A stretch of DNA of 24,000 nucleotides from Fodinicola acaciae (GCF_010993745.1 NZ_WOTN01000001.1:41235-65234); one strand, 5' to 3'; positions 602 through 23,107 are shown, counted from the stretch's first letter. The notes: a model not told the origin generated them from the sequence alone. Numbers and translations: made by a program.

Positions 602-2255
602 CCGGCTCCACGCGCAGGTTGCGCCAGCTCGCGGTGGCGTTGAAGTCGCGTACGCCGACCGCGCCATGCGTGAAGGTGCAGTCCGTCGCGCTGGCGGCGG
701 TGCCGTCGACGGTGATCGTGCAGCCGTCGACGGTCACCGCGAGGTGATACCAGCTGCCGGCCGGCACGCTCGGGATCGGCGTGACCGAGAGCGGTGTCCA
801 GTTGTCGGCCTGCCGGCCGATCACGATCGAGTTCGCGGTCACGCCGACGTAGTAGCCGTCGAGGTTGTCGGTGCCGACGGTCGGATCCGTTGCGCGTACG
901 AGCAAACCTGCGTTGCCGTTGGTGCCGACGCTGTCCAGCCGTACGTCGGCGGACACCCGATAGGAGGTCCAGGCCGTCGATCCGGCGATCGCCTTGTTGC
1001 CGCCGGACCCGCCGGTGGTCTCGCCGTAGACGCCGTTCGCGGCGCTCCAGCTGCCGCCATAGCGGATCCAGCCGGGATCGCCGGCGCCGAAGTCCGCCGC
1101 GTAGGGCAGCACCCCGGCGTTGCTCTGGCCGGTCAGCTCCTGGCAGCCGTACGGTCCGGTGATCCCGGCCGCCGCATAGCGCACCGTCGTGCCGTCGGCC
1201 GACGGCAGCAGATCGGGGCTGTAGTTGGGATTGCAGTTGGACGTGCTGCCATTCCCGATCGGCACGGCGATCGGTGCCGGCATCCACGACCACGAGTCGC
1301 CGGTCGCGCTGCTCAGCACGATCTGGTGGTCTTCCGGCGCGCCGCCGCCGACCAGGGTCTCGCCATAACCGGTGAGCAGCAGCCGGCCGGCCGGGCTCCA
1401 CACGATCACCGGCGAGCCGTAGAGACCGCGTCCGTCGTCGGTGCGTACGGCGGTGCCGAGATCGCCGGCGTTCCAGGTCGCGCCGTCGGCCGAGGTCTTC
1501 ACTCTGACCGCGCAGTTTCCTGGTCCGCAGACCTCGAAACTCATAATGTAGCGGTCGGTCGCCGGCATGTACGCGACCGTGACCATCCCCGGCCGGTCCG
1601 CCTGCGTCGCCGACGCGACATCCTTGACCGGTGCCGCCGTCCAGCTGTCGCCACCGTCGGCCGACACGATGTGGCCGAGAAACTGGCTGTAGGTCGCCGA
1701 CTGCCGTTCGTCGGAGAAGTAAAGCAGCAGCCGGCCGGCGCGGTCGAGCATCGCGAAGGGTTCCCAGATGCCGCGCGGCGACGGTCCGCCAACCTGCGGC
1801 GCACCAACGTACGACCAGGTCGCGCCATGATCGTCACTGCGCCACTCGCGGATGGTCGTCGCCGTGCTGTTTTTGTCCACTGTCAAGCCAAAAAGCAGCA
1901 ACGTACCGGCTGGATGGCCACCAAGCTGCCGTGGCAGCTCGTACAGGAACGGCTGGAAGGAGTAGGTGTCGCCCGGCACCTCGGACAGCGTCGACCAGGT
2001 TGCTCCGTCGTCGTCACTCCGCCTGACAACGTACGACGAGACGCCACCGTTTCCGTCCCAGTGCTCGAAAGTCGCCAGCACCGTCCCGGTCGACAGCCGG
2101 ATCATCCGCGCATACGCCATGCCCTCACTGGCCGACGCCGGCGCGTACAACGGATCGCCTTGTACGTTCGCGACCGCTGCCTGCGCCCCACCGACGACCA
2201 GGAAGGCCGCCGCGGCCGCGATCACTACCCGCCAGAGTGCTAGTTTTGGCCGCAT
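585..2255 (-). CDS. Secreted BNR/Asp-box (sialidase-fold) glycosidase-like protein with a C-terminal concanavalin/LamG-like (DUF1080-type) jelly-roll domain
   Basis: 556-aa ORF. ATG at 2255 is preceded by GGAAGGG. Sec-type signal peptide (MRPKLALWRVVIAAAAAFLVVGGAQA). Four Asp-box motifs: SDDDGATW, SDDHGATW, SADGGDSW, SADGATW. The last ~170 aa (GGSWSAANGVY...NAGLLVRA...YYVGV...WYHLAVTVDG...WRNLRV) look like a lectin-type beta-sandwich. Confidence 0.75.
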   Translation of the reverse strand: MRPKLALWRVVIAAAAAFLVVGGAQAAVANVQGDPLYAPASASEGMAYARMIRLSTGTVLATFEHWDGNGGVSSYVVRRSDDDGATWSTLSEVPGDTYSFQPFLYELPRQLGGHPAGTLLLFGLTVDKNSTATTIREWRSDDHGATWSYVGAPQVGGPSPRGIWEPFAMLDRAGRLLLYFSDERQSATYSQFLGHIVSADGGDSWTAAPVKDVASATQADRPGMVTVAYMPATDRYIMSFEVCGPGNCAVRVKTSADGATWNAGDLGTAVRTDDGRGLYGSPVIVWSPAGRLLLTGYGETLVGGGAPEDHQIVLSSATGDSWSWMPAPIAVPIGNGSTSNCNPNYSPDLLPSADGTTVRYAAAGITGPYGCQELTGQSNAGVLPYAADFGAGDPGWIRYGGSWSAANGVYGETTGGSGGNKAIAGSTAWTSYRVSADVRLDSVGTNGNAGLLVRATDPTVGTDNLDGYYVGVTANSIVIGRQADNWTPLSVTPIPSVPAGSWYHLAVTVDGCTITVDGTAASATDCTFTHGAVGVRDFNATASWRNLRVEPVSGSR

Positions 2256-2408
2256 GACTACCCTTCCGGGGGATTTGGTCCGTTGAGAGCGTGGCCGGCG
2301 TTGGGTCCGTGGTCAAGAGCCGAAGCTGGCCGAGCGGCGATTTCGCGTGGCCGGCTTGTGCCGGCGGGGTGTGCCAGCGAGGTCGGGAGGAGGCGGGGAG
2401 AGGCTGCT

Positions 2409-3113
2409 GGGTTTTCCTGGTTGTTGCGTTGGGTGGGTGGTGGCGCCTGCGCGGCGGGCGCTCCTGCGCGGAGGGCGACCTCAAGGGGAGGGGTGCGCGG
2501 GGTTTGTTTGTGGTTGGGTTGGGTGCCGCGCGTGCGGTTTGGTCTGTGGTGTGGACCAGCAGTGTAGCTGGGGCGCCGGCGGTGCCGTGGCGTCCCGCCC
2601 TGTGGCGAGAAGGTCCACTATGTGGGACGCGAAGGTATGTGGAGCGCTAAATGTCCGGCTTGTGAGGGTCGCGGATGGCATGAATGTCGAGTTACTTGCG
2701 TTGGACGCAAGAAACAAGGCTCTCACGCCGCAGTGATCACTGGAGGCTGTGACGGGTGTGACTACTGAGGCTGACAATGCTGCTGTGATCGCCTGGCTGT
2801 AACAGACGTCCGTTTTGATGTTTTGTTAAACAAGTATTACGCAGTCAGCCGCCCCAGCAGGATCGTTTGGCGTCCAGACCGACGGGTTGCTTCCCATACG
2901 TGACCGAGCAAGCCTAGAGGACCCAGCCTCGCCCGCAAACCGCCGCCCGCACCCCTATGCACACCGATTGGCGGCCACGCGCCCCCTCCCTTGAGGTCGC
3001 CCTCCGCGCAGGAGCGCCCGCCGCGCAGGCGAAAACCAACCACCCACCCAACGCAACAAACAAGAGACGCGACCACCTTCCCAACGCAACAATCAGAAGT
3101 CGCAACCACACCC
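2409..3113. repeat. Copy 1 of a non-coding composite repeat with inverted arms, a lower-GC core and outer subrepeats
   Basis: The arms are L 2417-2500 and R 2975-3063, including a perfect 44-bp inverted match (2444-2487 vs 2988-3031). The core at about 2560-2900 is clearly homologous to 16527-16900. It contains an ungapped 164-nt block (2619-2782 vs 16582-16745) with 11 mismatches, and a 55-nt identical run (2978-3032 vs 16980-17034). No ORF has host-like codon bias. Confidence 0.85.
3048..3113. repeat. Two 33-bp tandem subrepeats (CCAACGCAACAAnCAGAA core) at the right edge of copy 1
   Basis: Units at 3048-3080 and 3081-3113 both start CCAACGCAACA. An inverted copy of the unit (TTGTTGCGTTGGG, 2421-2433) lies in the left arm. 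Confidence 0.7.
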
Positions 3114-3121
3114 CCTTCACC

Positions 3122-3733
3122 TCACCGCTGCAACCTATCCAACGCCACATTCACCCCCAACACATTCACCCCAGGATCCCCAACAAACCCCAACCCCCGA
3201 CCATACGAATTGTCGGCCACGACCTTCTCCACCTGAGCCACCGACAGTCCCCGCGCCTTGGCAACCCGATTGACCTGAATAGCCGCATACGCAGGACTGA
3301 TGTCGGGATCCAGTCCAGAACCACTGGCCGTCACCGCATCCGCCGGCACCAACGACTCCGGTACGCCGTTGAACTGCGCGACCTGCGTCCGCCGTTGCTT
3401 GATCGCCTTGACCAGGTCAGGGTTTGACGGGCCGAGGTTGGACGCGCCAGAGGACGTGGGGTCATAGCCGGTCTTGCCGGCGGCCGACGGTCGTGGCTGG
3501 AAATAGCGTGGCAGCGGGTTTCCCTTGTCGTCGGTGAAATTCTGGCCGATCAGCGCAGAGCCGACGACCTTGCCGTTGACCTCGACGCGGGAGCCGTTGG
3601 CGGCGCTGGGGAAGACGACCTGCGAAATGCCGGTCACCAACAGCGGATACGCCAGGCCGAGGATCACCGTGAAGACCAACAGTGCACGCAGAGCCGCGAC
3701 GTGCATGCGGATCCAGTTTGGCAGTGTACGCAT
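3122..3733 (-). CDS. kdpC: Potassium-transporting ATPase subunit KdpC
   Basis: 203 aa. N-terminal TM helix followed by the typical KdpC strings (LIGQNF, YFQPRPSA, ASGSGLDPDISP). It lies 7 nt downstream of the kdpB stop. Confidence 0.93.
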   Translation of the reverse strand: MRTLPNWIRMHVAALRALLVFTVILGLAYPLLVTGISQVVFPSAANGSRVEVNGKVVGSALIGQNFTDDKGNPLPRYFQPRPSAAGKTGYDPTSSGASNLGPSNPDLVKAIKQRRTQVAQFNGVPESLVPADAVTASGSGLDPDISPAYAAIQVNRVAKARGLSVAQVEKVVADNSYGRGLGFVGDPGVNVLGVNVALDRLQR

Positions 3734-3740
3734 GAGAAAA

Positions 3741-5858
<2,118 letters not shown>

Positions 5859-5869
5859 TCTCTCTCCTC

Positions 5870-7516
5870 TTACAGACCTTCGGCCAGCGGGCCGAGAGCC
5901 AGCGCCGGGAAGTACGTGAGGCCGACGACGATCAGGATCACGCCGACCAGCATCCCCACGAAGATGCCTTTGTGGGTCGCCAGCGTGCCGGCGGTCTCCG
6001 GCACGGCACCTTGTTGCGCCAGTGATCCGGCCAGCGCCAGCACGAAAACCATCGGCACGAACCGGCCGAGCACCATGCACAGCCCCAAAGCGGTGTTGTA
6101 GAACGGCGTGTTCACCGAGAGGCCGGCGAAAGCCGAGCCGTTGTTGTTGGACGCCGACGTGAACGCGTACAACACCTCGGAAAGTCCGTGCGCGCCGGGA
6201 TTCAGGATGCCGCTGGTTCCCCACGGAATGGCGATCGCCAGGCCGGTGCCGATCAACACCAGCGCCGGCGTGGTCAGGATGTAGAGCGAGGCCAGCTTGA
6301 TCTCGCGCGCACCGATCTTCTTCCGCAGATATTCCGGCGTACGGCCGACCATCAGACCCGCGACGAAAACCGTGACGATGGCCAGGACCAGCATGCCGTA
6401 CAGTCCGGATCCGGTGCCGCCAGGAGCGATCTCACCAAGCATCATGTTGAAAATCGCGATGCCGCCCCCGAGTGCCGTGTACGAGTCGTGGAAGGAGTTG
6501 ACCGCACCGGTCGAGGTCAGGGTGGTGGAGCTGGCGAACAGCGCGGATAGCGGTACGCCGAAACGCACTTCCTTGCCTTCCATGGCCGCACCGGCCAGCT
6601 GTGGCGCGAGCCCCGGATGCGCGGTCTCGACCCAGGTGAGCAGGCCGACCGAAGCGGCCCACAACGTCCCCATCACCGAGGCGATGGCAAAACCCTGCCG
6701 GTTGTCGCCGACCATTTTGCCAAACGTACGAGGCAACGCGAACGGGATCAGCAGGATGAGGAAGATCTCGAAAAGACTCGTCCAGGCACGCGGATCCTCG
6801 TACGGATGCGCCGAGTTGGCGTTGTAGAAACCGCCGCCGTTGGTGCCGAGCTCCTTGATGGCCTCCTGCGAGGCGACCGGACCACCGGTCAGATGCTGTG
6901 TGGCACCGGCGATCGTGTGCGCGTCCGTGCCGGACGACAGGTTCTGTACGGCGCCGCCGGCGACGAGCACGAGCGCGCCGACGAACGCGATCGGCAGCAA
7001 CACGCGCAGGCTCGCGCGCGTCAGGTCGACCCAGAAGTTGCCGAGCCGATTTGTCTTGGACCGCGCGAAACCGCGTACGAGTGCGACCGCGACCGCGATG
7101 CCGACGGCCGCCGACACGAAGTTCTGTACGGCAAGGCCGGCCATCTGCACGAGATGACCCATCGTCGACTCACCGGAATAGGACTGCCAGTTGGTGTTGG
7201 TGACGAAGCTGATCGCGGTGTTCCACGCCTGGTCCGGCGCCACCGGTCCGAATCCGAGCGACAGCCACAGCTTGTCCTGCAGCCGCTGGAAAAGATAGAG
7301 GAACAGCACCGAAACGGCGGAGAAGGCCAGCACACTGCGCAGATAGACCGGCCAGGTCATGTCCGCGTCGGCGTCGATGCCCATCACCCTGTAGAGCACG
7401 CGCTCCACACGATTGTGTTTGGCCGCGGTGAAAAGCCACGCCATGTAGTCGCCGAGCGGCTTGTAGAACGCGGCGACCGCCACCACCAGCACGATGACCT
7501 GCAGCCAGCCGGCCAT
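5870..7516 (-). CDS. kdpA: Potassium-transporting ATPase subunit KdpA
   Basis: 548-aa polytopic membrane protein with a typical KdpA N-terminus ([26 protein letters not shown]) and the [10 protein letters not shown] selectivity-region string. Its ATG overlaps the kdpF TGA (ATGA). Confidence 0.95.
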
Positions 7517-7614
7517 CAGAACTTCTCCGGAAACAGCAGCGCCACGATCAGATAACCGGTCAGCACGACGGCGACCGCCAGGCCGACGAGGTTGGCCACG
7601 AGTTGTACGGTCAC
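7516..7614 (-). CDS. kdpF: Potassium-transporting ATPase subunit KdpF (32 aa)
   Basis: GTG at 7614 gives [32 protein letters not shown], a single TM helix with the KdpF-like ending LLxPExF. There is an ATGA overlap with kdpA. Confidence 0.8.
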
Positions 7615-7694
7615 AGCCGCTCGACTCCTCTCGCCACCAGGGCGATCAGGGCGAACACCGCGACGGTGAGCACCACGAAGATCAGGTCGCTCAT
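7611..7694 (-). CDS. 27-aa hydrophobic micro-ORF translationally coupled to kdpF
   Basis: ATG at 7694 gives [27 protein letters not shown]. About 24 of 26 codons end in G/C, as in real genes here. AAGGGGG lies about 10 nt upstream. Its TGA overlaps the kdpF GTG (GTGA). Not reported in the ORF track as a separate ORF. Confidence 0.45.
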
Positions 7695-7873
7695 CAGCGA
7701 CCGACCCCCTTTCCAGAAGAAATTCCGACAGTGCCGACGTTAGAAAGCACCGGCGGGCGCGTACGGCTCGTTGACGGCTCCCATACGCCGCTCCAGACCG
7801 CGTTAACGTGTTCTTGACGGGGGCTGTGACGGGCCTCGCTAGCGGAGCCGGCCGGGCGCGGCACACTGATGGC

Positions 7874-10817: not shown

Positions 10818-11554
10818 CATCAGGCGAGTCCAGGCTGGAGAAGCCGACCACGACCTCCGAGCCGGGCTCGGATCCGAATCCGGACGACATCTCGATCAGG
10901 GAGTACTTCGCCTCCGGCGAGTTCCGCCGCGAGGTGGCCCGCCAGCTCGGCGGCTGGACCGGCATCGCCGAGAGCGCGATCCCGGTCGTCGTGTTCGTCA
11001 TCGCCAACACGTTCCTGTCGCTCTATCCGGCGCTGATCGCCGCGGTCGCGGCGGCGCTGCTCATCGCCGGTTTCCGGCTGCTGCGCAAGCAGTCACCGCG
11101 GCAGGCGCTCAACGGCCTGGTCGGCATCGCGATCGCGGCGATCTGGGCCGCGCGGACCGGGCGCGCGCAGGACTTCTATCTGCCTGGCATCCTGATCAGC
11201 TACGCGTACACGCTGGTCATCGCCGGCTCGGTGCTGTTCCGGCGTCCGCTGGTCGGCGTGGTGTGGGCCTTCTTCGGCAACATCGGCTCGGAGTGGCGGC
11301 GCGACCGCGGCCACTACCGGATGTTCTTCTGGCTCACCCTGCTGTGGGCCGTGGTGTGGTTCGCCAAGGTCAGTGTGCAGGCCTGGCTGTACGTCGCCAA
11401 CGCGTCGGCGGCCGAGCTCGGCGTCGCGCGGATCATCTTCGGCAACCCGCCGATCGTGCTGCTGATCGTCGTCACCGCCTGGGTCGTACGCCGCCACAAC
11501 AAGCGCCACGGCATCCCCGAGCCGACACCCGAAACCCCCGCCGCCGAAGCCTGA
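10814..11554 (+). CDS. DUF3159 integral membrane protein
   Basis: Start taken at GTG 10814, coupled to the upstream stop; the tracked start at 10685 would overlap the OB-fold gene. Acidic/Pro-rich N-terminus followed by about 5-6 TM helices. Confidence 0.7.
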   Translation: MTSGESRLEKPTTTSEPGSDPNPDDISIREYFASGEFRREVARQLGGWTGIAESAIPVVVFVIANTFLSLYPALIAAVAAALLIAGFRLLRKQSPRQALNGLVGIAIAAIWAARTGRAQDFYLPGILISYAYTLVIAGSVLFRRPLVGVVWAFFGNIGSEWRRDRGHYRMFFWLTLLWAVVWFAKVSVQAWLYVANASAAELGVARIIFGNPPIVLLIVVTAWVVRRHNKRHGIPEPTPETPAAEA

Positions 11555-11569
11555 CCCGCCAGGTCAGGC
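11549..11569. terminator. Short hairpin between convergent genes, with both stop codons in its stem
   Basis: GCCTGACC-cgcca-GGTCAGGC, an 8-bp stem with a 5-nt loop. TGA of DUF3159 (11552-11554) and TCA, the complement of the trkA TGA stop (11564-11566), are paired with each other. No U-tract. Confidence 0.35.
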
Positions 11570-12229
11570 GGTGCGGCCGGAGACGGCGTTCTCGATGGCG
11601 TCCTCGTGTTCGCTGGTGGCCAGGAACATCAGCTCGTCGCCGGCCTCCAGCGGCTCGTCGCCGGACGGCACGATCACCCGGCCACCGCGCAGGATCGCCA
11701 CCATCGCGGTGTCCGGCGGCAGCGGTACGTCGCGCACCGGCCGGCCAGCCAGCGGCGAGTCGGCGGCCAGCGTGATCTCCACCAGGTTGGCCTGGCCGCG
11801 CCGGAAGGTCATCAGCCGGACCAGCTCGCCGACCGTCACCGCCTCCTCGACGAAGGCGGCCATCAGCCGGGGCTTGCTCACCGGCACGTCCACGCCCCAC
11901 TGCTCGGTGAACAGCCACTCGTTCTCGGCGCGGTTGACGCGCGCGACCGTGCGGCTGACCGCGAACTCGGTCTTGGCCAGCAGCGACACGACCAGGTTGA
12001 CCTTGTCGTCGCCGGTCGCCGCGACCATCACGTCGCAACCGGCGATGCCGGCCTCCTCCAGGCTGGACAGCTCGCAGGCGTCGGCGAGCAGCCAGTCGGC
12101 CTTGGGCACCAGCTTGGACTTCAGCGCCTCCGAGGAGCGCTCGATGAGCATCACGCTGTGGCCGTGCTCGATCAGCTCCGCGGCGATCGAGCGGCCGACG
12201 TTGCCGGCGCCAGCTATCGCGACTCGCAT
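11564..12229 (-). CDS. trkA: TrkA-family (RCK domain) potassium uptake regulator, CeoC-like
   Basis: 221 aa. Rossmann motif MRVAIAGAGNVGRS and a C-terminal TrkA_C region. The start abuts the stop of the upstream paralogue. Confidence 0.9.
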   Translation of the reverse strand: MRVAIAGAGNVGRSIAAELIEHGHSVMLIERSSEALKSKLVPKADWLLADACELSSLEEAGIAGCDVMVAATGDDKVNLVVSLLAKTEFAVSRTVARVNRAENEWLFTEQWGVDVPVSKPRLMAAFVEEAVTVGELVRLMTFRRGQANLVEITLAADSPLAGRPVRDVPLPPDTAMVAILRGGRVIVPSGDEPLEAGDELMFLATSEHEDAIENAVSGRTA

Positions 12230-15070: not shown

Positions 15071-16359
15071 CGGCAACCAAGGCACTTCCGGTCGGCTTCG
15101 AGGTGGAGGTCGAGGTCGGTCCGGTGGCGCACGGCGGCCACTGCGTGGCGCGCCACGACGGCCGGGTGATCTTCGTGCGGCATTCGTTGCCAGGTGAGCG
15201 CGTACGCGCGCGGATCACTTCTGACCGTGGAAAGGCGTACGCGCTGGCCGAGGCCGTCGAGGTGTTGCGGCCGTCGCCGGACCGAGTCACCCCGCCGTGC
15301 CCGTACTCGGGAGCCGGTGGCTGCGGCGGCTGCGACTGGCAGCACGCCGATCCGGCCGCCGTGCGACGCGGCAAGGCGACCGTTGTTCGCGAACAGCTGT
15401 TGCGTCTCGGCGGTCTGTCGACGGATCAGCTGGATGTGTTGGGACTGACCGAAAACACCGAGGCTGAGGCGTTGCCTGGCGGTCCGCTGGGTTGGCGCAC
15501 GCGCGTACGCTATGCCGTCGGCGACGATGGCCGCGCCGGTTTCCATCCACATCGTTCGAGCACTGTCCTGCCGATCGACGACTGTCTTTTGGCAACTGAC
15601 GACATCCGGCAGCTCGGCGTACTCGGCCGTCGTTATCCGGACCTGGCCGGCATCGACGTCGTATCGTCGTCGGCCGGCGACCACGCCGTGGTGCTGCGGC
15701 CGCAGGGTCAGGCGCACGTCGACGTCAGTGACTGGCCGGAAAACCTGGCGGTGCTCGACGGTGGCGCACATCCGGCCGTCGCCCGCCGAGGCCACAACCG
15801 CGTACGCGAAAACGCCGCCGGCCGCCGCTGGCTCGTCCACGCCGACGGCTTCTGGCAGGTCCACCCGGCCGCCGCGACCATCCTGTCCGACGCCGTGATC
15901 GCCGAAATCGACCCGCGCCCCGGCCAGACCGCACTCGACTTATACTGCGGCGTCGGTCTTTTCGCCGGCGCGCTCGGCATCCAGGTCGGCCGCCACGGCA
16001 AGGTCTACGCCGTAGAATCCGATCGGGCCGCCGCCGACAACGCCCGCCGCAACCTCCGCGACGTACCCGCCGTCGTGGTCTCCTCAGGCGGAGTCGGTGG
16101 CTGGCTGCGAAAAACCCAAATCGACAAACTCGACGCCGTCGTGCTCGACCCTCCCCGTACCGGCGCCGGCGCAGCGGTGTGCAAACAGCTCGCCGCGCTG
16201 GAGCCGCCAGTTATTTGTTACGTGGCTTGCGATCCGGCAGCATTGGCGCGCGATGTGAAAGTGTTGGCCGGGCAGGGCTATCGGCTCACCGCGCTTCGGG
16301 TTTTTGATGCGTTTCCTATGACTCATCATATCGAATGCGTGGCGACATTACGGGTTTGA
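15067..16359 (+). CDS. TRAM-domain, Fe-S cluster class I SAM-dependent RNA (uracil-5) methyltransferase (TrmA/RlmD family)
   Basis: 430 aa. N-terminal TRAM-like beta region, cysteine cluster CPYSGAGGCGGCDWQH, SAM-MTase strings LDLYCGVGLF and LDPPRTGAG, and catalytic-Cys region YVACDPAALARD. ATGA overlap with the permease stop. Confidence 0.88.
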   Translation: MTATKALPVGFEVEVEVGPVAHGGHCVARHDGRVIFVRHSLPGERVRARITSDRGKAYALAEAVEVLRPSPDRVTPPCPYSGAGGCGGCDWQHADPAAVRRGKATVVREQLLRLGGLSTDQLDVLGLTENTEAEALPGGPLGWRTRVRYAVGDDGRAGFHPHRSSTVLPIDDCLLATDDIRQLGVLGRRYPDLAGIDVVSSSAGDHAVVLRPQGQAHVDVSDWPENLAVLDGGAHPAVARRGHNRVRENAAGRRWLVHADGFWQVHPAAATILSDAVIAEIDPRPGQTALDLYCGVGLFAGALGIQVGRHGKVYAVESDRAAADNARRNLRDVPAVVVSSGGVGGWLRKTQIDKLDAVVLDPPRTGAGAAVCKQLAALEPPVICYVACDPAALARDVKVLAGQGYRLTALRVFDAFPMTHHIECVATLRV

Positions 16360-16366
16360 GCGGGTC

Positions 16367-17212
16367 GGGATTTCTGGTTGTTGCGTTGGGAGGGGCCGGG
16401 CTCTTCATTTTTGTTGCGTTTGGGGGGTTCGCCTTCGCGGCGGGCGCTCCTGCGCGGCAGGCCCGGCCAGAATGTGCTCAAGCAGAGCTCGCCGACGGGG
16501 GAGAACGGACAAACCGGACCGGGAGTGTGGCTGGGGCGCCGGAGCTGCGGTGGCGTCTCGGTGGGGGGCGTGAGGGTCCAGTATGTGGGATGCGAAGACG
16601 TGTGGAGCGCTAAATGTCCGGCTTGCGAGGGTCGCTGATGGCATGAATGTCGAGTTTCTTGCGTTGGACGCGAGAAACAAGGCTTTCACGCCGCAGCGAT
16701 CATTGGAGGCTGTGACGGGTGTGACTACTGAGGCTGACAATGCTGGTGTGGCTGCTGGGCTGCGCCAAATGTCCATTTTGATGTCTTGTTAAACAAGTAT
16801 TACGCAGCCGATCCGCCTCGCCTGCATTATCAGCCACAGCAGTCACACCATCACCCCCCGGCCGCTGTGATGGCGTGCATGCCGACGGGTTGCTTCCCAT
16901 AGGTGACCGAGCAAGCCCGGAAGACCCGACCCCGCACGCAACCGCCGCCCGCACCCCTATGCACACCGATTGGCGTTCCCGCGCCCCCTCCCTTGAGGTC
17001 GCCCTCCGCGCAGGAGCGCCCGCCGCGCAGGCGACAAACCCACCACCTACCCAACGCAACAGTCAGAAAACGCAACCGCCTCTCCACCGCAACAATCAGA
17101 AAACCCACGACCTCACCCACCGCAGCAATCAGAAAACCGACCACCCCGCCCAACGCACCAACCAAATCCCACCACTCGCCCAACGCAGCGAAGAAAACCG
17201 CAACCACCGCAG
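16367..17212. repeat. Copy 2 of the non-coding composite repeat (same orientation as copy 1)
   Basis: It aligns to copy 1 over the core and right arm (see copy 1). The left arm keeps only about 28 nt of the inverted match (16430-16457 vs 17006-17033). There is an extra ~40 nt after the ATTACGCAG landmark and a longer subrepeat array. It fills the gap between convergent genes. Confidence 0.85.
17051..17207. repeat. Five tandem subrepeats with periods 33, 33, 33, 30 and 28 bp and a CCA(A/C)CGCA core
   Basis: Units start at 17051, 17084, 17117, 17150 and 17180. The first three share CCAnCGCArCArTCAGAAAAC. Two inverted units lie on the left side (16375-16390 and 16408-16425, TTGTTGCGTT(T)GGG). 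Confidence 0.75.
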
Positions 17213-17239
17213 ACGTACAAATGGCAGAATCCGCCAACC

Positions 17240-20743: not shown

Positions 20744-22017
<1,274 letters not shown>

Positions 22018-22025
22018 CCGTCTTG

Positions 22026-22076
22026 GTCGCATGGCCCCCATGCGTGCGTTGGATGCACGCATGGGGGCCATGCGAC
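22026..22076. terminator. Perfect 22-bp-stem hairpin between convergent genes (bidirectional terminator candidate)
   Basis: GTCGCATGGCCCCCATGCGTGC (22026-22047), loop gttggat, GCACGCATGGGGGCCATGCGAC (22055-22076). It is followed by only TTT on the plus strand. Confidence 0.6.
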
Positions 22077-22080
22077 TTTC

Positions 22081-22803
22081 CTAGCGCGCGAAGGCAGGCG
22101 TGCTGTTGAGGAGCGCGAAGACGTACGGCATCGCGCCGAACTGCCAGAGCGCGAGGGTGACGCCGACGATCGCCAGTGGCACGGCCACGAACCACTGCTC
22201 GCGCAGGCCACCGGTCGGCATGTTGCTGCCGCGGAAGCGCTTTTTGCTCAGTGGATAGAAAAGCGGCACGCCTTCCGTGGTCATGACGTCCCCGGAGATG
22301 TGCGCGGCCACGCCGAGCGCGTAGCTGGCGCCGACCCAGGCCCAGTGGACACCGGCCAGGGTCGCGGCGACCGTGAGACCGGTGCAGGCCACGAACGTAC
22401 CCACGTTGGCGATGACTCCGCTGCGCGTCCAGCCGAGGCCGCGCGCGCCGAGTCCGACCGCGAGTACGACAGCGATCGTTGGCAGATAAGGGATCCACTG
22501 GCCGCCGATGACCATCAGCTGGGCGAGGATGCCGGTGATCGGCACGGCCCAGATCGCGTGCGTGCCTTTCCGGTGGCCACCGGAAAGGCACGCGATGCCG
22601 CGCGCCAGCAGCCGTGTCGGCCAGCCAAACGTACGCGCCACGGTCGCCGACGGATGGTCGAGATCGGGCAGCAGCGCCGCGCCGGCGGTCACGACCGCGC
22701 CGGCGGCCAGCTCTGCCGGTCCGAGGTGGACGACCTGCGTCAGCAGCGGCGCGGCGGCCAGCCACACCGCCGCGCCGCTGATCGCATGCGTGTGGCCCAT
22801 CAT
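22081..22803 (-). CDS. Membrane-bound metal-dependent hydrolase, DUF457/YdjM-like
   Basis: Start placed at ATG 22803 (MMGHTHAISGAAVW), preceded by GGGAGGAG, giving 240 aa. Multiple TM helices with conserved His/Asp (LLPDLDHP, GHRKGTH, HISGD). Confidence 0.75.
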   Translation of the reverse strand: MMGHTHAISGAAVWLAAAPLLTQVVHLGPAELAAGAVVTAGAALLPDLDHPSATVARTFGWPTRLLARGIACLSGGHRKGTHAIWAVPITGILAQLMVIGGQWIPYLPTIAVVLAVGLGARGLGWTRSGVIANVGTFVACTGLTVAATLAGVHWAWVGASYALGVAAHISGDVMTTEGVPLFYPLSKKRFRGSNMPTGGLREQWFVAVPLAIVGVTLALWQFGAMPYVFALLNSTPAFAR

Positions 22804-23107
22804 CGAAGCCGGCTCCTCCCGTTGGCGGCCGAAAACGTACAACGGGACGGCGTCGTGGACGCGTGCGCCGCACCGAGCGGGTGGGTGTTGCGGTCGTCAC
22901 GGCCGGTTTTATCGGGTCATAACGGAAACCCAGCGGCATTGGTCCCGAGAAAGGTGGGGCCCCGACCACATCGGCGGACCTACCTTTTGCGTGATCCACA
23001 TCGCCGCATCAGGCTGAAGGGGCACGTGCGGTGGTGATCGGTCATCCTCGCGTAGGACGACGGATTAGACTCGCGTGTTGCAAACCAAGGACTGAGGAGG
23101 CCCGCTG

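Follow-up and report, generated by a model that had tools for sequence, protein, structure and literature searches.

A non-coding element of foldback-like architecture in two intergenic spacers of Fodinicola acaciae

What occupies the 866 nt that separate kdpC (stop at 3122) from the BNR/GH16-type gene (start at 2255) in Fodinicola acaciae, a soil/plant actinomycete, and how did it come to lie there? We analyzed this gap within a stretch of 24,000 nucleotides (the window), from whose first letter all positions are counted. An earlier note on the same DNA had regarded the gap not as ordinary spacer but as a composite, non-coding unit that occurs twice, and had offered two readings: a MITE-like non-autonomous element or a large structured RNA with a long closing helix.

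Anatomy of the two copies

The element is present in two copies in the same orientation, 14 kb apart, each just past gene ends. Copy 1 measures about 730 bp (2403-3131) and copy 2 about 860 bp (16360-17215), and the architecture is common to both (Table 1). Imperfect inverted arms of about 78-150 nt enclose a core of 45-58% GC, with 45-55% in its middle, compared with 67.7% for the 24-kb window. In copy 1, the arms at 2423-2500 and 2975-3052 (78 nt, 82% complementary, 474 nt apart) contain a perfect core, 2444-2487 versus 2988-3031, of exactly 44 bp with no possible extension. An outer inverted pair lies at 2417-2448 and 3065-3096, and weaker pairing continues inward to about 2552 and 2915. 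The motif CCGCGCAGG occurs about twice per GC-rich arm, and seven of its nine occurrences in the window fall inside the arms of the two copies. At the AT-rich block (2812-2844) the skew of the + strand flips from G/T-rich to C/A-rich.

At the outer extremes lies a tandem 33-nt minisatellite whose left (G/T-rich) and right (C/A-rich) arrays mirror each other. Unit numbers are 1 left and 2.2 right in copy 1, and 2 left and 3.8-5.5 right in copy 2. The unit core TTGTTGCGTTGGGTGGG, with up to three mismatches allowed, was found eight times in the window against 0.03 expected, always within the two copies; together with a fold z-score of about -11 on either strand, this count indicates that the architecture is not due to chance. 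In the inward direction from either end, each unit reads as a small G-rich hairpin with a T-run behind it. Of the four element ends, three face a gene 3' end, and inward-facing sites of hairpin plus T-run follow the stop codons of the methyltransferase and ROK genes; the strand read from kdpC showed no terminator-like site. Because the arrays decay outward, the element has no sharp ends, and no common terminus can be defined for inverted repeats capped in this way. No direct repeat of at least 6 bp, as a target-site duplication, was detected across the plausible end windows of either copy; shorter duplications are not judgeable with ends so unsharp.

The copies align over 2553-2844 and 16516-16807 with 87% identity, over 2868-2938 (copy 1) with 85%, and over 2938-3035 with 96%. 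Copy 2 retains a 34-nt remnant of the GC-rich arm pair, and its inner left arm has diverged, with indels, beyond gapless alignment. What appears in copy 2 as a 39-nt 'insertion' is the right half of a 145-nt palindrome (16712-16856) that is deleted in copy 1. The gap is therefore as unusual as the earlier note had said: its inverted repeat with the perfect 44-bp core, the low-GC middle of about 475 nt, the weaker inward complementarity, the recurrence of the unit at a second site (about 16360-17215) and its composite nature were all recovered. That description was right for the repeat and the core, but it had missed the 33-nt arrays, the degraded left arm of copy 2 and the 145-nt hairpin.

Table 1. 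Positions of the parts of the element in the window, and identity between the copies by block (copy 1 coordinates).
Feature	Position	Strand	Remarks
Copy 1, left outer end	2403..2443	+	one G/T-rich 33-nt unit (TTGTTGCGTTGGGTGGG core), with a degenerate partial unit outward
Copy 1, left GC-rich arm	2444..2552	.	perfect 44-bp core 2444-2487, then weaker inner arm; CCGCGCAGG twice, CCTCAAGG
Copy 1, core	2553..2937	+	45-58% GC; common to copy 2; coding-type substitution in no frame
Copy 1, hairpin A	2636..2768	+	best-kept core block, 94% between copies; about 12 G.U pairs
Copy 1, AT-rich block GTTTTGATGTTTTGTTAAACAAGTATTACGCAG	2812..2844	+	94% between copies; at the switch of GC/AT skew
Mini-palindrome	inside 2812-2844	+	TTGTT-A-AACAA
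Copy 1, AAGTATTAC	2832-2840	+	inside the AT-rich block
Copy 1, right inner and GC-rich arm	2938..3035	.	96% versus copy 2; perfect core 2988-3031
Copy 1, right outer end	3033..3131	-	C/A-rich 33-nt repeats, 2.2 units (TRF, 3037-3109)
Copy 1, third, degenerate right unit	overlaps kdpC stop codon 3122-3124	-	
Copy 2, left outer end	16360..16427	+	two G/T-rich 33-nt units directly after the methyltransferase stop 16357-16359
Copy 2, left terminator-like hairpin and T-run	16390-16416		within the + strand G/T-rich end
Copy 2, left arm	16428..16515	.	pairing with the right arm persists over 34 nt (16429-16462, 91%); rest diverged with indels
Copy 2, core	16516..16939	+	hairpins A and B, AT-rich block
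Copy 2, hairpin A	16599-16731	+	homologue of copy 1 2636-2768
Copy 2, hairpin B	16712-16856	both strands alike	145-nt palindrome
Copy 2, AT-rich block	16775-16807	+	AAGTATTAC at 16795-16803
Copy 2, right inner and GC-rich arm	16940..17035	.	inverted-repeat alignment
Copy 2, right outer end	17036..17215	-	3.8 clear 33-nt units (17036-17161), then about 1.5 decayed
Copy 2, right terminator-like sites	17125-17105, 17212-17198	-	downstream of the ROK stop (17240)
Identity of copies	2553-2639		78%
Identity of copies	2640-2783		94% (hairpin A)
Identity of copies	2784-2811		64%
Identity of copies	2812-2844		94% (AT-rich block)
Identity of copies	2868-2937		84%
Identity of copies	2938-3035		96%
Identity of copies	2976-3032		98%

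Coding capacity, folding and uneven conservation

The element is non-coding, as had been claimed. Its 39 substitutions in the gapless 292-nt core alignment are spread 14/13/12 over the codon positions, and neither the longest pseudo-ORF nor a six-frame chimera has a homologue among 5.8 billion protein clusters. A hidden protein gene was rejected on account of these two results. A conserved 22-aa ORF (2684-2752), in which three of five changes are synonymous, was dropped as well (p of about 0.1 before correction for six frames). In Rfam, nothing in the 24-kb window reached the gathering threshold; at E<=10 copy 1 had no match, and the copy 2 hits, to a snoRNA, isrG and two models of plant microRNA precursors, all stayed below threshold (9.7-26 bits versus thresholds of 35-245). 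A known RNA family was rejected on these searches, in agreement with the earlier failure to recognize one. Sigma-70-type promoters were found on neither strand.

The arms and hairpin A behave differently when they are folded. For copies 1 and 2, G.T and A.C mismatches in the arms number 4:1 and 2:10, which amounts to no wobble bias; the two strands fold equally well, and the closing helix is largely lost from copy 2. The long helix is therefore an inverted repeat at the DNA level and not a conserved RNA stem, and the reading as a large structured RNA closed by that helix was rejected. In hairpin A, folding as RNA reaches -55.2 and -70.2 kcal/mol on the + strand of copies 1 and 2 (z -3.9 and -7.2), compared with -34.6 and -36.9 kcal/mol on the - strand (z -2.1 and -2.8), and the consensus fold is -97 versus -49 kcal/mol. 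It contains about 12 G.U pairs, and its G.T to A.C mismatches number 8:2 in copy 1 (p = 0.11) and 10:1 in copy 2 (p = 0.012). With DNA parameters the strand asymmetry is weak (copy 2, z -2.75 versus -2.09) and not significant for copy 1. Hairpin B of copy 2 folds alike on the two strands (-74 and -78 kcal/mol). These predictions suggest that hairpin A, unlike the outer arms, may fold in a strand-specific, RNA-type manner.

Identity between the copies is patchy (Table 1). Hairpin A, the AT-rich block with AAGTATTAC and the right arm are well kept (94-98%), and the contrast of hairpin A with its neighbours is significant (Fisher p = 7e-7). In the poorly kept stretches, divergence has reached the level of neutral sites between species, which indicates that the duplication is old. 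Blocks of 94-98% identity in copies of such age require either selection or gene conversion between direct repeats, two causes that a pair of sequences is too small a sample to separate. Patchy conservation is not normal for individual dead transposon copies. The strong conservation of the three blocks suggests that they are recognized in some form, be it as an RNA fold, a protein-binding site or a nick site, and they offer a tractable small target for RNA-seq, binding or nicking assays.

Relatives and the search for further copies

KdpC, KdpA, TrkA and ROK as encoded in the window are identical to RefSeq proteins of F. acaciae. The F. acaciae genome (8.86 Mb in 4 contigs, 67.81% G+C) has an ANI of 77.9% to that of F. 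feengrottensis (PMC7232338). A 21-kb syntenic stretch of F. feengrottensis (L034) is collinear with the window, block by block. Between the same two genes, methyltransferase and ROK, both intact and the latter 92% identical in amino acids, the spacer measures 880 nt in F. acaciae, where it holds copy 2, whereas F. feengrottensis has 26 nt there. In the sister species the site of copy 2 is thus clean and empty, and the two species differ by an insertion-type event, as the MITE-like reading had implied. A 7.2-kb block (602-7800) that comprises the GH16/BNR gene, copy 1 and kdpCBA is absent from the F. feengrottensis locus, so that the copy-1 site has no counterpart there for comparison.

A third Fodinicola species was found in Logan assemblies, with a methyltransferase 91% identical in amino acids and 84% in nucleotides. 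Directly after its stop codon there is a G/T-rich 33-nt array, and all five contigs (from at least seven sequencing runs) end 135 nt past the stop, as expected at a repeat. This tail is 63% identical to the window, compared with 64% at third codon positions of the adjacent gene, which suggests that the array evolves at about the neutral rate. Since the site is empty in F. feengrottensis and carries the array in the third species, the element, or at least its end, was gained between those two splits.

Other foldback-like DNA was seen in this genus. A strain similar to F. feengrottensis (metagenome 3300048999) has, downstream of the same ROK gene, a gene-poor foldback of about 1 kb (L042, 3604-4590) with 227-nt arms that are 78% complementary, a perfect central hairpin and three CCTCAAGG motifs. 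The F. feengrottensis stretch L034 itself contains an 800-nt spacer rich in repeats and hairpins. Homology of the F. acaciae element to either was rejected, as nhmmer gave nothing significant, and the 8-mer CCTCAAGG is the sole sequence shared with them. By analogy, these cases suggest that Fodinicola spacers may repeatedly acquire foldback-like non-coding DNA.

Searches farther afield gave no additional copy. Blastn in its 'distant' setting matched no plasmid or phage record, and five patterns scanned against viral contigs matched none, so a plasmid or phage origin was rejected. The 22-mer common to all four arms had eight isolated chance matches in 185,579 GTDB representative genomes, each 22-36 nt long and in unrelated phyla, and a 21-mer of the core was not found in JGI metagenomes; a dispersed family in other genomes was rejected on these two results. 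A metagenome search by KdpC for the orthologous site of copy 1 returned relatives of at most 66% identity over most of the protein, and these lack the element. Within the 24-kb window there is no transposase, related autonomous element, Rep, relaxase or Y1 transposase, and the large ORFs are all syntenic housekeeping genes. The known copies are two in the window plus one orthologous, vertically inherited trace, a tally in which the F. acaciae genome beyond the window has uncertain coverage. The earlier note had held that two copies, with none in relatives, would point to a local duplication and not to an element family; the outcome leans towards a rare or old event, now with an orthologous trace in a third species.

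Origin of the element and comparison with known systems

Our best explanation, held tentatively and at somewhat less than even confidence, is a lineage-restricted, protein-less, foldback-type non-autonomous DNA element of Fodinicola, or the relic of one. In this model, an element whose long GC-rich inverted arms, each capped outside by a mirror-oriented 33-nt array, enclose a lower-GC core with long hairpins of its own would have arrived, once F. feengrottensis had split off, by insertion-type events in short spacers just past gene 3' ends. A long divergence of the two copies would have followed. An enzyme encoded elsewhere may move the element in trans, recognizing the arms or the repeat arrays, and the present effect on the host would be at most that of a structured 3'-end module, perhaps a terminator or insulator. 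Against mobility stand the two known copies, the lack of a target-site duplication of at least 6 bp, the fading ends and the absence of a transposase from the window.

The low copy number, the lack of such a duplication and the fading ends would also fit a structured intergenic segment that was copied just once to a second spacer, at a distance of 14 kb. Templated repair of a break at a palindrome could have done this, and gene conversion would later have homogenized the two copies in part. Such an ectopic duplication is in our view unlikely, though not far-fetched. It agrees with two copies in the same orientation, with the absence of matches in plasmids, phages, viral contigs, representative genomes and metagenomes, and with the patchy identity of 64-98%, as expected of intermittent gene conversion between nearby direct repeats. 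However, each copy lies precisely between two intact genes, the sister species has a clean spacer of 26 nt where copy 2 would be, and transposon ends typically have long inverted arms with subterminal repeat arrays. An unrelated second foldback at the same hot spot in another strain also speaks against a single accident, and the conserved blocks are 94-98% and not 100% identical, so that any conversion must be old. Were the duplication the whole story, the element would be a minor curiosity, a marker of rearrangement around the kdp/trk potassium cluster. We are more doubtful about a structured non-coding RNA encoded on the + strand of the conserved core (hairpin A, possibly with the AT-rich and right-hand blocks), to which the outer arms would be incidental. 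The far stronger + strand fold of hairpin A, its consensus fold, its G.U pairs and mismatch ratios, and its 94% identity beside neighbours of 64-78% all fit an RNA. On the other hand, neither strand has a promoter-like site, there is no Rfam match, no compensatory double change is seen, and three of the seven differences in hairpin A break a copy 1 pair; two sequences give almost no power for covariation. A G/T-rich region by itself favours G.U pairs on the + strand, and the + strand of copy 1 is antisense to both neighbouring genes.

Two further readings turn on the nonanucleotide AAGTATTAC. In one, which we regard as improbable, the element would be the cis-acting target of an HUH endonuclease that works on single-stranded DNA, be it a rolling-circle Rep, a relaxase or a Y1 transposase. 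AAGTATTAC would be the nick site, exposed beside hairpins, and the whole a non-autonomous origin or 'satellite' mobilized in trans. The sequence fits NANTATTAC, the nick nonanucleotide of CRESS-DNA virus Rep proteins (PMC4683175); its sole occurrences in the window, at 2832 and 16795, are homologous positions in a 94%-conserved block, and it is absent from seven related loci (about 44 kb). On the 145-nt hairpin of copy 2 it occupies the 3' edge of the apical loop, with TATTA unpaired in the single-stranded DNA fold. The strand specificity of hairpin A would also fit, and HUH-mobilized elements are expected to lack target-site duplications. Nevertheless, the motif match is post hoc, with a chance of about 0.02 per motif class and several classes recognizable. 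The loop of about 38 nt is closed by a 7-bp stem in copy 2, compared with loops of 9-13 nt, the enclosing stem of copy 1 is nearly gone, and there are no iterons by the stem. No gene in the window encodes a Rep, relaxase or Y1 transposase, DNA energy parameters leave hairpin A with a weak strand asymmetry, and long inverted arms are not a feature of HUH-mobilized elements. The other reading, to which we give a very slim chance, is a chromosomal 'satellite' origin with a circovirus/nanovirus-type nick sequence, AAGTATTAC, mobilized or replicated in trans, from which the K+-homeostasis block might be released as a circle: initiation at one copy and termination at the other could free the kdpFABC, kdpD and trkA genes. 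A candidate single-stranded substrate for HUH nicking is CAAGTATTACGCAG. The AT-rich block and GGGTGTG were also inspected by eye for a dif/Xer site and relaxase nic sites; the look-alikes there matched weakly and in part, and were dropped.

The foldback-type element that we prefer can be set beside several known systems. Prokaryotic MITEs are typically shorter than 500 bp, with TIRs of about 4-30 bp and target-site duplications that fade with age (PMC10969869). Like the Correia, QMITE1/2 and Chunjie elements described there, the Fodinicola element is non-coding, intergenic, bounded by inverted repeats and near gene ends, with a predicted transcript that folds into a stable stem-loop, and it is present or absent between related genomes (880 versus 26 nt). 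Unlike them, it measures 730-860 bp, its arms are 78-150 nt long with decaying caps and are GC-rich rather than AT-rich, no target-site duplication of at least 6 bp was detected, and it has two copies and no known parent IS. The MITE-like reading of the earlier note thus holds for the non-coding nature and for the insertion relative to the sister species, but not for sharp ends, size or arm length; no target-site duplication of at least 6 bp was seen in the end windows, and a multi-copy MITE family is not supported by the copies found. Subterminal hairpins without TIRs, as in IS200/IS605-derived PATEs, are not what is seen here, as long terminal inverted arms are present. The BrickBuilt MITE of Porphyromonas gingivalis is likewise non-coding, intergenic and species-restricted and has a spacer-less minisatellite whose unit number varies between copies, with units of 23 nt as compared with 33 nt here (PMC4596501). 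The body of BrickBuilt, however, consists of the minisatellite itself, flanked by a leader and a tail with small inverted ends, and each genome has 19 copies. The Fodinicola element instead has two mirror end arrays around a unique body of about 600 nt, and two copies were seen.

There is also a resemblance to virus-type stem-loop origins: as in CRESS-DNA viruses (PMC4683175, PMC8780604), an exact NANTATTAC match, AAGTATTAC, lies by a hairpin apex and is kept in both copies. Its loop is far larger, however: in copy 2 the nonanucleotide is at the 3' edge of a loop of about 38 nt on a 7-bp stem, and the stem of copy 1 is marginal. There are no adjacent iterons or other short direct repeats by the stem and no Rep-like gene in the window, the setting is chromosomal, and long inverted arms flank the site; we see resemblance only.

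REP, BIME and REPIN sequences are small GC-rich palindromes in inverted arrangement that lie after gene 3' ends and between convergent genes and are mobilized by RAYT, an HUH Y1 enzyme. REP units are 20-40 nt long, occur tens to hundreds of times per genome and may act as terminators or mRNA stabilizers. The repeated unit in Fodinicola is not a short palindrome but measures about 0.8 kb with a unique core, and its arm 22-mer was not met elsewhere beyond the eight chance matches; clusters of REP/RAYT type are also mentioned in PMC3184786.

The closest architectural match, with no homology implied, is to the Foldback (FB) elements. In Drosophila and other eukaryotes, these have long TIRs that consist in part of tandem short subrepeats, whose number varies between arms and between copies, around a central non-repeated loop, often without coding capacity; they are usually much larger and multi-copy. 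To our knowledge, no FB-like family has been established in prokaryotes. Should the F. acaciae element prove to be a mobile one of foldback type, it would extend to prokaryotes a design described mainly in eukaryotes. It would also offer a way into the mobilome, as yet almost unstudied, of an actinomycete genus that branches deep and is rarely sampled.

The hairpin A ORF and DNA downstream of ROK

Within hairpin A, the best-conserved core block of the foldback element, a 22-codon ORF is unbroken in both element copies (MSSYLRWTQETRLSRRSDHWRL vs MSSFLRWTRETRLSRRSDHWRL). Three of the five nucleotide differences between the two ORFs are synonymous, a proportion that is not significant once six frames are allowed for. 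The 5' foot of hairpin A (2646-2655 and 16609-16618) carries the 10-mer CGCTAAATGT, which is also found in a third Fodinicola species (L035-L041). There, the DNA 1-118 nt past the ROK stop is an AT-richer stretch, not the C/A-rich 33-nt array; this stretch bears CGCTAAATGT and is followed by a terminator-like hairpin, AATCCGCCC...GGGCGGATT.

In the F. feengrottensis-like metagenome strain, a foldback of ~1 kb lies 3' of the ROK orthologue (L042 3604-4590). It contains three copies of the motif CCTCAAGG, and its sequence is unrelated to that of the F. acaciae element. The methyltransferase-ROK interval of this strain (L009 plus L042) also holds MarR and short-chain dehydrogenase genes.

Other differences from F. 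feengrottensis

The DUF3159-trkA spacer is 67 nt in F. acaciae, whereas in F. feengrottensis it spans ~800 nt without genes (L034 5660-6463), including three 70-nt tandem repeats, two 36-nt repeats and several CTCAAGG-type motifs. Window 22014-22975 represents ~960 nt of additional DNA relative to F. feengrottensis.

Coordinates and properties of features in the window and in related loci
Feature	Position	Strand	Remarks
22-codon ORF, copy 1	window 2684-2752	+	within hairpin A
22-codon ORF, copy 2	window 16647-16715	+	within hairpin A
F. acaciae counterpart of L034 5660-6463	window 11509-11575		
Long GC-rich hairpin	window, about 22030-22075		directly past ABC permease gene, in extra ~960 nt
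YdjM-family inner-membrane protein gene	window 22081-22842	-	in extra ~960 nt
Perfect hairpins of DUF3159-trkA spacer	L034 5906-5950 and 6016-6078		
Foldback arms	L042 3657-3875 / 4326-4546		227 nt, 78% complementary
Foldback perfect hairpin	L042 4027-4085		

The potassium-homeostasis block between the element copies

The syntenic F. feengrottensis locus lacks the block at window 602-7800, on which the GH16/BNR gene, element copy 1 and kdpCBA lie; in its place, the DUF3710 gene is followed by 67 nt and then kdpD. This implies either a loss or relocation of kdpFABC in one species or acquisition of the 602-7800 block by the other. The two element copies (2403-3131 and 16360-17215) have the same orientation and flank a block of 13 kb that carries genes for potassium homeostasis (kdpCBA, kdpD, two trkA genes and a permease gene). 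As direct repeats, they could mediate deletion or amplification of this block.
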